Shown here: piece by piece, positions 8,784 to 14,306 of the stretch
Numbering within the stretch: the stretch's first letter is position 1
Layout of the letters: each line of letters opens with the position of its first letter
Assembly: GCA_040222015.1 (NCBI GenBank)
Contig: JAVJWO010000140.1
Coordinates: 1 to 20,402 of the forward strand
Length of the DNA stretch: 20,402 nt
Origin: Coleofasciculus chthonoplastes F2-STO-03
GTDB taxonomy: Bacteria; Cyanobacteriota; Cyanobacteriia; Cyanobacteriales; Coleofasciculaceae
Direction: 5' to 3'
Notes under the pieces: generated by a model
Told to the model about the DNA's origin: nothing
Database searches by the model: none
What the model saw: the letters and a program-made list of their open reading frames with translations, nothing else
Translations under genes and position numbers: made by a program

Positions 8784-9512
8784 TCAGGATGCTGTCGTCG
8801 ATTCTGGGGAATCACTGGGCGGAGTCGTGGCTTTATTCTTTTTCTCCTGTTCCCGTTGTTCCCGTTTTTTGCGATCGGCTTTGATCGCGTCTTCAATGGC
8901 AATCTGGGCTTGAGCCATTTTTTCCAGGTTGCTGCGATACAACTCCAAGTCTTTCTGTAGTTTCTCTTGGGGAAGATGCAAAGTTTGACCGATTCGCTGG
9001 AGCATTTCCATCGACTGTTTCGCGTCTTGAACTAGCTCCGGTTCTGCCTGTTCCAGAAGGGTATACAAGCCAATGGCAAACAGACGAGAGTATTTAAACT
9101 TAGGATTATCTGCGATCGCGGCAACCGTTGTATGAATATCCTCAGCACCCTCTAAAGGTGTTGGTGAACCAAACCAGTCAACCAGTTCTTGCGCTGATAA
9201 ACGCCCTACTGTGGCTTTCAGTTTTTCCGCATCCTCCTGATACTGTTGTGGATTACCTCCCACCGCCTGACAAAGGGCGTTAAAAATGGATTCTTTATCC
9301 CGTTCCGGTCGATAGCCTTGCATGAAGCGGTTAAAGGAGGCGACCACACCTAAGACATAGATGGGATCATACTTAAAATCCACATTGACCGCCAGCAAAT
9401 GCATCTCGACCATCAATTCTTCTACCACCCGTCGGTAAATCGAGTTGATTGGACGGGTGTGATAGTTATAAAAATCTCGTTTGGTATCCGAGACGGTGCG
9501 AACGTTACTCAC
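8784..9512 (-). CDS. thf1: Photosystem II biogenesis protein Psb29/Thf1
   Basis: RTVSDTKRDFY..HTRPINSIYRRVVEELMVEMHLL, FKYSRLFAIGL and KDLELYRSNLEKM are family hallmarks. GTG start. Confidence 0.95.
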   Translation of the reverse strand: MSNVRTVSDTKRDFYNYHTRPINSIYRRVVEELMVEMHLLAVNVDFKYDPIYVLGVVASFNRFMQGYRPERDKESIFNALCQAVGGNPQQYQEDAEKLKATVGRLSAQELVDWFGSPTPLEGAEDIHTTVAAIADNPKFKYSRLFAIGLYTLLEQAEPELVQDAKQSMEMLQRIGQTLHLPQEKLQKDLELYRSNLEKMAQAQIAIEDAIKADRKKREQREQEKKNKATTPPSDSPESTTAS

Positions 9513-9666
9513 AGAGCAAAATATAAAGGATATTTTTTACCATTGTCTCGCTTGAGTTTCACCCTAGGGGATAGAGTCTCAATCGAGTCATTCCTTCCAT
9601 CTTACCAGTTTATTTCCACCAGCCCACTTAGTATAATGTCTCTTGGCTTGATCTAACTCAATTTAG

Positions 9667-10019
9667 CTGTTCCGGCAAGAAGCCCCGCCCCATAATCTCT
9701 GATGTGGGGACGGGATGAATTGCCAGTCACCCTGGTAAAATTTTGGACGTAGGTTAAGCAAACCAAGAGCGAAAGCCGCCTACAAATTGAACCGGGACAA
9801 CTGAAAGTATGGGGTTTTACAGGGAATTGTGCAATCATCGCCAGCCTCTTGTATGTAAAACTTTCAAGGAACACAGGTAGAGCGAGAATTTTCTCTACTC
9901 CTTCTCCGGTGGGGCAGCACGGGGAAGTAAAGCCAAAGCTCGTGAAATGTCCTATGCAATAGCAGGAGTCAACGAGAAGCCCGCGCTATAATCTTTGATT
10001 TAGCGACGGGAGCTGTCAC
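9667..10019 (+). mobile_element. Non-autonomous IS200/IS605-type element (~350 bp, no protein gene)
   Basis: Left hairpin: GGCAA-GAAG-CCCCGCCCC-ATAATCTCTGATGT-GGGGACGGG-ATGAATTGCC. Right end: GAAG-CCCGCGCT-ATAATCTTTGATTT-AGCGACGGG-AGCTG-TCAC|. The left boundary is approximate. Confidence 0.75.
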
Positions 10020-10035
10020 CGACGATAGCCTCACC
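9748..10035 (+). ncRNA. Putative omegaRNA-like structured RNA; predicted 3' guide is the cpcT flank 10020-~10035
   Basis: Extended -10 TGgTAAAAT (9733-9741), then stems GTAGG...CCTAC, GTTTTACA...TGTAAAAC and GTAGAG...CTCTAC leading into the right-end hairpin. Boundaries are inferred. Confidence 0.45.
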
Positions 10036-10488
10036 CTCTTTGCCAAACAAGCACCGATTACTAACCTCGATCGCCCCTACCGTCAACGGATTCTCCGGCT
10101 GTATCAAAGCGACAAACTACAGGTACAGTATTATCAGATCAAAGACCCAGACGCTGTTCGCGGTGCAGGTTGCCATCCCGAATTATTGCAGCAGCTTACC
10201 CGCGAAGATATTACAGTCTTACCCGATTGTCGTCTGAACGTGCAGATGCAGCAAATCGGTTTGAATAATTATGAATTTACCACTACTTCAGCCAGCGATC
10301 GCCCTTGTCGCTTTAGTTATCAGGGCAATAATTACCAAGTCTATCTCGGCTTTGAAGTAACAGCCGATGAATTTCGCAGCTACGATAAAGGCATCGACCC
10401 TAGTACCGGAAAAGCCACTTGGGGAGCCTTACTCGGTCCATTTCGATTTACCAAACGCCAAGACTTCGCTGGGGAACTGCTAATTTAA
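10020..10488 (+). pseudogene. cpcT: CpcT/CpeT-family phycobilin lyase lacking its 5' end
   Basis: Open frame from 10021 reads DDSLTLFAKQAPITNLDRPYRQRILRL...SYDKGID...WGALLGPFRF (PYRQR and YD.G.D..WG are CpcT motifs). The N-terminal part (the LAG.FDN..QA region) is absent upstream. Confidence 0.85.
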
Positions 10489-12789: not shown

Positions 12790-13010
12790 GTCTTGCCGAA
12801 TTAAGGTGACATCCTCCCACACCAAATTGGAAATTATGGTGTGGGTTTCCCCAAATCACTTTGAGGATTTCCTGGTTACTCCCCTTCGACTACGCGGTAG
12901 CTGAGCCTGTCGAAGCTCAGGGGATTGCGCCACTTGGATGGTGTTGGTTTTCACCAACCCCCGGTAGATCGACTGCACAGGCAGTTTCCTTTTCCGCTAG
13001 CCCAGCGGTA
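12790..13010 (-). ncRNA. Predicted omegaRNA overlapping the tnpB 3' end; guide approx. CTTAATTCGGCAAGAC
   Basis: TnpB omegaRNAs are known to overlap the ORF 3' end and the right end, with the guide taken from the flank. Several hairpins are visible. The 5' boundary is approximate. Confidence 0.65.
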
Positions 13011-14306
13011 CCAATTAACTCTATTCCTCGGTTTCTGATTACCTGACCACTGGCAACATCCCTATCGGTTTTGTAACCGCAGTGAGGGCAATCATGTACC
13101 CGAACACTCAGGTCTTTTTTGACTTCACCTTTACATTCAGGACACTCCTGAGAAGTGCCTCTGGCATCAACAACACCAAAAAACTTTCCACGCTTCCAAC
13201 ACACATATTGGGTAATGGTACGGAATTGACCAAACCCCCCATCAAGCATCTGCTTACCTAACATCCCTTTGGCGCTAACTCTATAGTCTAAATCTTCCAT
13301 GAAAACCATATCGCCAGCGTCGCAAAGGGCGTGAGCTTGCTTGAAGTGAAAGTCTTTCCTGATGTTGTCAATGTGGTGGTGAAGTCTGGCTACCTTGAGT
13401 CGTTGCTTCTCATGGTTTTTTGACCGCTTCTGTTTCCTAGACAGCCTGCGTTGCAGCAATCTCAGCTTGCTTTGCAGCTTCTTAAGAAATTTAGGCGGCT
13501 TGACAACAACTCCATCGCTGGTCGCCAAAAACTTCTCTAGCCCTATGTCTACCCCAATTGGGTGTCCATGAGGTTTTGGATCAGGGACACTGACATTACA
13601 CTGGATGTTGATTGATGCATACCATTTATCAGCTTTGCGTATAATTCGCACCTGCTTAACCGTAAAGCCAGATGGAATAGGGCGGTGCAGGTTAATTGGG
13701 ATCGTCCCCAATTTTGGCAGTTTGACATGGAGGTTCGTTACTGGATTCTCCTTGAACTGAGGGAATAGCAACGACTTAAACTGCCCAACCTTCTTAAACC
13801 TAGGAAAGCCAAACCCGCGAGATTTGAAGTAGTCCCAACCTTTATGCAGTTGCTTTATTGTCTGCTGAAGGACTTGAGAGGGAACTTCCTTTAACTTGGG
13901 GAATTCCTTCTTAGCTTTCGGCAAATTGTTAAGCTGCCTCACTTCACCGGGAAATGGGGTTTCTGCTGGGATGATGTACTCATGCACCCGGGAACATCTA
14001 TCAATCAAACATTTGCGACTATTGCACCAATCCTTTATCTCCCCCAGTGCATAGTTGTAAGCACGGCGGCAAATTTCCATCCACTCAATCAATCGTTGTT
14101 CTTGAGCGGCATCTGGATAGATTCGGTAACGATAGTTAAATGTCAGCATACTCCTATTATAAAGCATTTACCAGTCAACTGTGTAGCTTTAAATGTCAAT
14201 TTAGAGTAACATTGAGTCACCTAAATTGACCTTGGGGAGTCGTGTTCGAGAGCGCTGAATCTTATGTTACAGCGTGGGTCTTACGACTCCCCAAACCCCT
14301 GCTAAG
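12806..14306 (-). mobile_element. IS200/IS605-family element carrying tnpB only (IS1341-like)
   Basis: Right end (minus): CCCACACC-ATAATTTCCAATTT-GGTGTGGG-AGGATG-TCAC| at 12806. Left-end structure TTGGGGAGTCGT...ACGACTCCCCAA (14232-14294) with an inner CGCTG/CAGCG stem. No tnpA. I saw no HIP1 site inside. The left boundary is uncertain (14301 if TTAG, 14306 if TTAT). Confidence 0.88.
12917..14149 (-). CDS. tnpB: RNA-guided endonuclease TnpB, catalytic residues intact
   Basis: N-terminal YRYRIYP HTH, GFPRFKK, RuvC-I IGVDIG, RuvC-II MEDL, Zn finger CPEC...CPHC, RuvC-III DRDVAS. Start placed at ATG 14149. Confidence 0.95.
   Translation of the reverse strand: MLTFNYRYRIYPDAAQEQRLIEWMEICRRAYNYALGEIKDWCNSRKCLIDRCSRVHEYIIPAETPFPGEVRQLNNLPKAKKEFPKLKEVPSQVLQQTIKQLHKGWDYFKSRGFGFPRFKKVGQFKSLLFPQFKENPVTNLHVKLPKLGTIPINLHRPIPSGFTVKQVRIIRKADKWYASINIQCNVSVPDPKPHGHPIGVDIGLEKFLATSDGVVVKPPKFLKKLQSKLRLLQRRLSRKQKRSKNHEKQRLKVARLHHHIDNIRKDFHFKQAHALCDAGDMVFMEDLDYRVSAKGMLGKQMLDGGFGQFRTITQYVCWKRGKFFGVVDARGTSQECPECKGEVKKDLSVRVHDCPHCGYKTDRDVASGQVIRNRGIELIGTAGLAEKETACAVDLPGVGENQHHPSGAIP

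Follow-up and report, generated by a model that had tools for sequence, protein, structure and literature searches.

Genomic Context and Insertion Site

The stretch analysed here (the window) comprises 20,402 nucleotides of contig C140 of Coleofasciculus chthonoplastes F2-STO-03 (genome G000). Next to the psb29/thf1 gene (8784–9512), it carries a gene-less IS200/IS605 element of 353 nt on the forward strand (9667–10019), delimited by comparison of filled and empty alleles and by a homolog in genome G013. The element has the layout TTAG|...TCAC, with the TTAG target, or TAM, in host DNA at 9663–9666 (forward strand). It is inserted at codon 45 of a CpeT/CpcT-family bilin lyase gene, the remnant of which follows at 10020–10488 on the forward strand. 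Compared with the intact counterpart in G006 (200 aa, PF06206), to which it is 93% identical from residue 45 onwards, the remnant lacks its leader and codons 1–44.

Empty alleles of same-genus genomes set the right boundary (TTTAG|CGACG), and the empty site consists of the TAM followed by a match to the predicted guide. The left junction is altered by a 158-nt deletion next to the element: the filled allele lacks the leader and codons 1–44, the missing part running between an upstream TTTAG and the target one, and the upstream TTAG is now joined to the left end. Micro-homology could account for the deletion, and so could joining by TnpA at the upstream TTAG. TTAG also precedes all 11 same-family copies examined in genome G116. 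The same insertion occurs in G002, and the element is absent from seven of the eight same-genus genomes; six of these, examined directly (G001, G003 and G005–G008), carry an intact 200-aa CpeT/CpcT gene, and G004 appears empty judging from match coordinates. The insertion coincides with loss of the bilin lyase gene in two genomes. A second CpeT/CpcT family member, with 33% identity, persists on G000 contig C47. Loss of cpcT reduces phycocyanin in two model strains, according to the available text of PMC2408579. The cpcT disruption and the 158-nt deletion had been missed in the initial annotation, as had the boxA and the pseudoknotted core described below.

That annotation, made from the sequence alone, had proposed two IS605-type hairpin ends, a right end closing in TCAC with GAAG at the hairpin foot, and an interior free of tnpA and tnpB frames, and all three points hold. 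The left end (9679–9714, forward strand), a predicted TnpA site, consists of GAAG and a subterminal hairpin at 9683–9714; the right end (9976–10019, forward strand) consists of GAAG, a hairpin at 9980–10010 and the terminal TCAC at 10016–10019. Both hairpins have a DNA fold z of −2.18. No tnpA or tnpB was found in the element by ORF and Pfam checks, and the only frame of at least 60 aa, a 73-aa one on the minus strand, has no Pfam match. The end hairpins belong to the same family as those of the tnpB elements on G000 contigs C131, C150 and C210. The pairing of GAAG with TCAC and of GAAT with TCAA agrees in 22 of 24 parsed loci (107 of 131 loci are unparsed). A MITE was rejected, since terminal inverted repeats and target duplication are absent and the ends read CTGTT... 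and ...GTCAC. The features are those of PATEs: IS605-related subterminal hairpins, no transposase or TnpB gene, and insertion 3′ of an unduplicated 4–5 nt target, the last point resting on the right junction TTTAG|CGACG.

The right-end hairpin arm at 10001–10010 reads TTTAGCGACG, which equals the TAM plus the first five guide bases (10015–10024); the match is apparently due to chance, yet it comes close to a self-target. A role of TTTAGCGACG in choosing the target was rejected, as no bias of this kind is seen where other copies are inserted, judging from their flanks. Two remnants were also seen in G000. At C161:2003–2044 (L435), a hybrid of the left and right ends has lost the interior, as happens when the core is lost by repeat-mediated deletion, and at C75:172–200 a right-end remnant of this subfamily adjoins a family-B copy.

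Promoter-Like Box, P1 Hairpin and boxA

An extended −10-like box, TGGTAAAAT, lies at 9733–9741 (forward strand), with a predicted start at about 9747–9749. The box had been noted in the initial annotation, and its position is enriched: a −10-like hexamer stands 25–75 nt before boxA in 92 of 130 loci, against 10–29 of 115–125 in six control windows, although a strict sigma-70 scan makes no call. At the predicted 5′ end of the RNA, in the boxB position, lies the P1 hairpin (9749–9783, forward strand; fold z −1.44). Homologs show a hairpin there too, with a family-dependent sequence. A tnpB mRNA hairpin located at NKAENAG codons is copied as P1, its outer stem altered yet still paired, by 11 of 124 distinct copies, against 0 of 451 control windows; P1 of the window copy is of another type. 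The mRNA hairpin itself (NKAENAG/IKAERAG) lies some 150 nt upstream of the RuvC-III Asp codon in tnpB genes L037, L036, L346 and L356–L376, and small elements with a copy of it as P1 at the 5′ end are L129, L084, L105, L063, L085, L128 and L159. The hairpin is clade-limited: over 80 tnpB genes there is no general structured mRNA window at −150 nt. Derivation of P1 from a hairpin after RuvC-II was rejected (2 of 124, against 8 when shuffled).

P1 is followed by boxA, here the variant GAACCGGGACAAC of the consensus GNACCTTGAMAAC, at 9789–9801 (forward strand). The family consensus is the motif of the 16S–23S spacers of G002, G019, G036 and G116, where it follows a hairpin in five of six rRNA loci, the sixth being cut by a contig end. 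In G000, the motif also stands before CRISPR arrays, a tRNA array and rpsJ. The spacer position and these other leaders identify GNACCTTGAMAAC as boxA, the name which we take to apply to the cyanobacterial motif. boxA is the Nus antitermination signal of rRNA, as described in the accessible part of PMC13753749.

Sites of boxA in G000 include C124 (10 nt before rpsJ), C165:48266, C192:10221, which precedes a small toxin–antitoxin-like pair, and C117:26459 and 26862, which face each other. The boxA of the window copy is deviant, with CCGG where the family has CCT and a G where 127 of 130 loci have T, a set partly chosen by the motif itself. RNA-library contigs X5 and X6 carry T at that position. 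A helix between boxA and the 3′ tail was discarded as marginal (3.56, against 3.41 shuffled with a maximum of 3.52).

The Pseudoknotted Core

Behind boxA stands a conserved core of about 54 nt (9802–9869, forward strand), scored by model R2 at 58.3 bits in the window copy. It is built, on the same strand, of helix P2 (9802–9808/9860–9866, 7 bp), a near-invariant internal loop (9809–9816/9855–9859, ANGGGGUU/GUAAA), helix P3 (9817–9823/9848–9854, 7 bp) and a 3-bp pseudoknot (9845–9847/9867–9869) between the end of a variable-length loop and the three nucleotides past P2. The structure rests on covariation, not on folding energy. The successive stems proposed at the outset gained no support from the fold of 9740–10035, which is no better than that of shuffles (z −0.43), but structure is present as judged by covariation.

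Across 121 distinct copies, 6.67 of 7 positions are paired in P2 and 6.45 of 7 in P3, against 4.75 and 4.03 with shuffled partners. The pseudoknot is paired in 100 of 120 distinct copies, in 16 combinations (2000 shuffles gave a mean of 22 and a maximum of 38); relatedness of the copies inflates these contrasts, and a slide control, with 0–4 paired, still upholds the pseudoknot. In a set of 56 diverse cores that had been selected for pairing, double changes occur in 16 of 17 pairs and 11 columns are invariant. In model R1, built from 18 sequences, 12 of 13 predicted pairs are compensatory. A structure-only search of G000 returned 12 matches, all behind boxA.

Rfam 15 has no family for the core, and no ribozyme, riboswitch or group I intron was found in 29 stretches at E up to 1–5. 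The core is restricted to gene-less elements, being absent from 58 tnpB regions of G000, 80 tnpB genes and 12 full-length tnpB/tnpA loci. Several other origins were tried and rejected. A tnpB-internal sequence gave 0 descriptor matches in 92 kb, a best nhmmer E of 0.47 and alignment scores equal to shuffled ones (30.4 vs. 31.0). For an rRNA mimic, a relaxed descriptor matched 23S once, but 5 of 40 shuffles did likewise, and R2 found none in the rRNA operon; nhmmer matches the core weakly to 16S (E 0.008–0.15). A conserved small peptide was dismissed, the ATG being unconserved.

The variable linker (9870–9906, forward strand) is unconserved between families, and 9878–9910 has no fold above shuffles (z 0.17). 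A GCGAAAACCAAGC-like loop motif floats between positions before boxA, within the core loop and after the core; it lies at 9758–9771 in the window, and other carriers are L087, L125, L151, L166, L241, L250, L276, L292 and L304. In a TCAA subfamily (L090, L093, L096, L099 and L120), the pseudoknot is lengthened, with UCUAG in the loop and CUAGA in the tail.

The tnpB-Derived Tail and the Predicted Guide

The initial annotation saw no TnpB coding remnant; one is in fact present. The last ~113 nt of the element (9907–10019, forward strand) align with tnpB 3′ ends, and this tnpB 3′ end plus the right end represent a predicted omegaRNA scaffold. The coding remnant at 9947–9991 reads MSYAIAGVNEKPAL followed by a stop, against MSYAIAGVAEKP in the TnpB of L037. 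The tail matches the tnpB clade ending in NAAINIKNRAVGQPVLKAQLMSYAIAGVAEKP (L037, L036 and L346) and shares 25 consecutive identical bases with L037, and the homology begins 34 nt past the RuvC-III Asp codon of that gene. Class-wide, 59 of 120 distinct tails align over at least 70 nt to an 80-gene tnpB library; in 48 of these 59 the homology begins +5 to +60 nt past the RuvC-III Asp codon, and in no case upstream. This sharp boundary supports selection for the whole scaffold. Matches to one of 20 different G000 tnpB 3′ regions were obtained for 66 of the 120 tails, some via the end hairpin alone. On two tails, Rfam 15 gave weak scores, e.g., 22–24 bits for RAGATH-18 (cut-off 44.9). The scaffold of AmaTnpB, 106 nt in the available text of Nety et al. 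2023 (PMC10278001), is near the 113-nt scaffold here.

The predicted guide (10020–10035, forward strand; its length is an estimate) is host flank, coding in cpcT. The arrangement is that of an omegaRNA: a scaffold of tnpB 3′ end and right end, and an empty allele composed of TAM and guide. The last 8 nt of the guide can pair with the 5′ end of the scaffold (8 bp in the fold). A TTAG-plus-12-nt site with fewer than two mismatches was sought in the G000 genome and none was found.

Distribution of the Cassette

The homolog search shows that 9770–9885 recurs with unrelated tails, which marks the front half as a separate module. Model R1 matches 17 places in G000 and finds the cassette in 23 of 151 cyanobacterial genomes, G000 included, with up to 20 copies per genome (26 candidates scored per genome). 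A pattern scan of a species collection gave at least 118 matches, and among the 80 listed, 75 are cyanobacterial by title; R1 scores 78 of these 80 loci and 4 of 4 viral loci. A tnpB frame lies near the module in one of 131 aligned loci (L132, 716 nt downstream) within the 1.5–1.7 kb of flank examined, the 131 including seeds and near-duplicates. A right end was recognised by a loose pattern 65–254 nt downstream in 106 of the 131 (TCAA in 61 and TCAC in 40). At least four families of transposon ends carry the cassette, and their tnpB tails differ: G000 alone has TTAG|..TCAC, TTAC|..GTCAA and TTGAA|..TTCAA, and TGAC ends occur in metagenome contigs. Many relatives in G013 and G068 are half-elements. 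The decayed copies L052–L054 keep the front half and lack the tail; tail-only fragments are equally common.

G000 holds at least four further gene-less families with the same boxA–core cassette and other ends and tails. Further copies in this genome are located at C108:71640–72011, C137:1–373, C130:94125–94512, C130:142957 and C179:18846 and on contigs C1, C106, C126, C196, C81, C52, C61, C151, C110, C112, C216, C217 and C218. The ends of two such families occur 6–12 times, many at contig ends; these counts take in a few tnpB elements that share the end.

Outside cyanobacteria, the class is patchy. In samples of two other phyla, it was found in 0 of 151 genomes around G216 and in 1 of 151 around G219; the latter copy, at a contig end and nearly identical to Microcystis copies, is probably mis-binned. 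A metagenome scan requiring a TCTTT-type boxA gave 51 loci, 37 of which fold P2 and P3, and a viral scan gave 11 of 54; the form of boxA was chosen by the search pattern, the pairing and the ends were not. In these 48 metagenome and viral loci there is no TnpB match within 1.2 kb, and an IS200/IS605-like end is present in 32 of 36 distinct ones; their forms of boxA include GTTCTTTGAAAAC (15), GCTCTTTAACAAC and GATCTTTGAAAAT. Two flanks look Bacillus-like. One metagenome contig has two copies of a small element (L283/L284) whose boxA is of the E. coli type, and a DNA methyltransferase gene lies nearby. A plasmid search returned two partial end matches only.

Candidate TnpA and TnpB Partners

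The initial annotation named multiple copies of equal length with different flanks as a check. For the subfamily itself this did not hold, as BLAST finds a single full-length copy in G000; in sister families it did. In G116, 11 of the 20 copies examined measure 427–429 nt, with TTAG before, TCAC after and differing flanks; a twelfth was parsed at 503 nt and eight are unparsed. Three tnpA–tnpB elements of that genome have the left hairpin of the small elements and a tail very like theirs. A copy in G013 (L010) is an 80% full-length homolog at an unrelated site. Mobilization by TnpA in trans is inferred from sequence, the strain-specific and multi-site insertions implying mobility.

G000 contig C150 carries a 1427-nt TTAG|..TCAC element with an intact 404-aa TnpB having D/E/D. 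Its tail is the closest in G000 to that of our element, with a score of 36 against 61 for L037, so the match of the scaffold to the local TnpB is loose. A tnpA with matching ends was not found in the 219-contig G000 assembly, the best identities to five such TnpAs being 44–52%. Family C has an autonomous partner on G000 contig C195. The window also contains a separate IS605-family tnpB (12861–14167, minus strand, 416 aa) whose end is of the TCAC type; by tail clade it goes with the small elements L086 and L108, not with this element.

Expression and State of the Window Copy

Part of the stretch is contained in 15 of 17 listed RNA runs, four of which were examined. The RNA-library contigs, from three studies, cover 9673–9977 (X1), 9763–9924 (X4), 9705–9867 and 9838–9921 (X5) and 9770–9920 (X6), and they carry neither strand nor RNA ends. 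X1 starts upstream of the predicted start, and X5 also has a thf1 piece. The lack of flank coverage has no bearing on expression of this locus, as the copies sequenced may sit elsewhere. Transcription of the element is only hinted at by these contigs.

G000 and G002 do not differ over 9484–10044, against 2.5% around it, and 8900–9150 is also identical; for the element alone the chance of identity is about 1e-4 if a flat rate is assumed. The identical tract fits a filled allele that was transferred recently, the outcome expected of recent homing, and ordinary recombination or selection could also account for it. The class looks functional and the window copy may be impaired, given its deviant boxA and the self-pairing of its guide.

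Comparison with Known Systems

PATEs were defined by Dyall-Smith et al. 2011 (PMC3119063), and some, in the available text, are deletion-derived and keep tnpB C-terminal sequence; according to the accessible part of Meers et al. 2023 (10.1101/2023.03.14.532601), they often encode omegaRNAs that need TnpB in trans. Our element resembles PATEs in being gene-less, with IS200/IS605 subterminal hairpins, neither terminal inverted repeats nor duplication, and a target motif at the left end. It differs in its promoter–boxA–pseudoknot leader, which goes unmentioned in the available portions of both papers, and here a single leader goes with tails from many tnpB clades and with no fewer than four end families. 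The TnpB omegaRNA (reRNA) in the corresponding part of Nety et al. 2023 likewise has a scaffold of tnpB 3′ end and right end, a flank-derived guide and a similar length. It is usually cut from tnpB mRNA, whereas here the RNA is apparently transcribed alone behind a non-coding leader.

The rRNA boxA/Nus leaders, as far as the accessible text of PMC13753749 goes, share the order of hairpin and boxA, with the motif of the cyanobacterial 16S–23S spacer, and the metagenome forms resemble the E. coli and B. subtilis consensus quoted there. In contrast, here boxA lies on a mobile element, directly before a fixed pseudoknotted core, which the rRNA, CRISPR, tRNA-array and rpsJ leaders lack. IStrons, in the available part of their preprint (10.1101/2023.11.20.567912), also place a structured RNA 5′ of omegaRNA inside IS200/IS605 ends, but the core, of about 54 nt, has no group I intron match. 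The boxA–pseudoknot leader was not found in the open literature surveyed, nor in the accessible portions of PMC13565253, PMC11448079, PMC12558985 and the IStron preprint. Guide-only PATEs are known; a boxA leader with a new pseudoknotted RNA motif is apparently an undescribed, widespread variant of them.

Interpretation

We favor, with a probability of roughly two in three, a portable cassette for expressing guides, dependent on TnpA and TnpB from elsewhere, with the core as a protector or loading aid. The element would be a non-autonomous IS200/IS605 parasite of the PATE type making one RNA, in the order P1 hairpin, boxA, pseudoknotted core, linker, omegaRNA scaffold and flank-derived guide. 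Judging from the ends, the TnpA of another element would move it. By analogy with Meers et al., a matching-clade TnpB from elsewhere would load the scaffold and cut alleles with TTAG plus guide, and repair from a filled chromosome copy would keep or spread the element. The front cassette would stand in for the normal supply from tnpB mRNA: boxA may recruit host Nus factors that take the untranslated RNA past the hairpins it forms, and the likeliest task of the core is to shield or set the 5′ side of the guide RNA until a TnpB made elsewhere binds. What was observed are the ends, the empty site, the tnpB origin and boundary of the tail, the rRNA boxA motif and the fold of the core, its gene-less setting and its reuse by several end families; we infer that the RNA is transcribed, that Nus factors bind it, that it is loaded into TnpB and directs cleavage, and what the core does. 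The guide-only parasite of the initial annotation fits the anatomy in its tails, 48 of 59 of which begin shortly past the final nuclease codon and none before it, in its multi-copy sister families and in its empty site of TAM and guide. The idea is already in print in the available text of Meers et al., however, and it did not include the tnpB remnant or a front half that is a separate module. Cyanobacteria are not known to carry Rho, which makes the need for boxA hard to account for and weighs against this reading. The start of X1 upstream of the predicted start, the deviant boxA and self-pairing guide of the window copy, the lack of a matching tnpA in the G000 assembly, the loose match to the C150 tail and the half-elements of G013 and G068 also count against it.

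In the same parasite, the core might instead cut itself as a ribozyme, or offer a dedicated RNase site, and so free the scaffold in place of TnpB processing, which we regard as unlikely. Sequence-free helices around near-invariant unpaired bases and a tight pseudoknot do resemble small ribozymes. Twister and hatchet ribozymes likewise have two helices around a conserved internal loop, and the order of helix, internal loop, helix and loop-to-3′ pseudoknot recalls twister; the conserved bases differ from both, and neither matched in Rfam. The core lies just 5′ of the place where TnpB-type processing would be needed, but TnpB can itself process extended RNAs (accessible text of Nety et al.). The 29 stretches yielded no Rfam ribozyme, and the RNA-library contigs cross core and linker without a shared stop, as far as contigs, which cannot show ends, may be read.

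A decoy or regulatory RNA, in which TnpB, TnpA or a host factor would be bound by the core, damping autonomous elements or shielding the host instead of guiding cleavage, seems improbable. X4, X5 and X6 centre on 9763–9924, i.e., on the core and not on the guide end, a weak hint. The front halves kept without a tail in L052–L054, the 11 of 124 P1 hairpins copied from tnpB mRNA and the inhibition of cleavage in vitro by a tnpB mRNA region (in the part of Nety et al. available) point the same way. Against it, tail-only fragments are as common as such front halves, the scaffold is intact and clade-specific in most loci, and both mobile ends are kept.

An ordinary internal-deletion relic moved by TnpA only, its interior a passenger or a fold at the ssDNA level, is very improbable: the single G000 copy, the deletion-derived PATEs on record (Dyall-Smith et al., available text) and the unremarkable RNA fold energy would suit it, but deletion cannot create a core that was not found in the tnpB regions, genes and full-length loci searched, the core shows strong covariation and comes together with a promoter-like box and with boxA, which acts at the RNA level, and the breakpoints are non-random, 48 of 59 tails starting at +5 to +60 nt.

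Returning to the guide-expression cassette, a bolder form of it is speculative, and we would not expect it to hold: the core would be a new catalytic or nuclease-blocking RNA class, and promoter, boxA and core would have been joined repeatedly to different tnpB 3′ ends, each time giving a guide-only parasite that uses the host rRNA transcription machinery of whichever lineage carries it.

These elements would be natural stand-alone guide genes and matter for TnpB biology, as a guide made apart from its nuclease would have to be stabilised, trimmed and loaded in trans. The core is small and its fold well supported; should it stabilise or mature guides, TnpB guide expression could draw on it as a ready-made part. 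In cyanobacteria, where it is common and reaches 20 copies in a genome, the class would add guides against many host sites.
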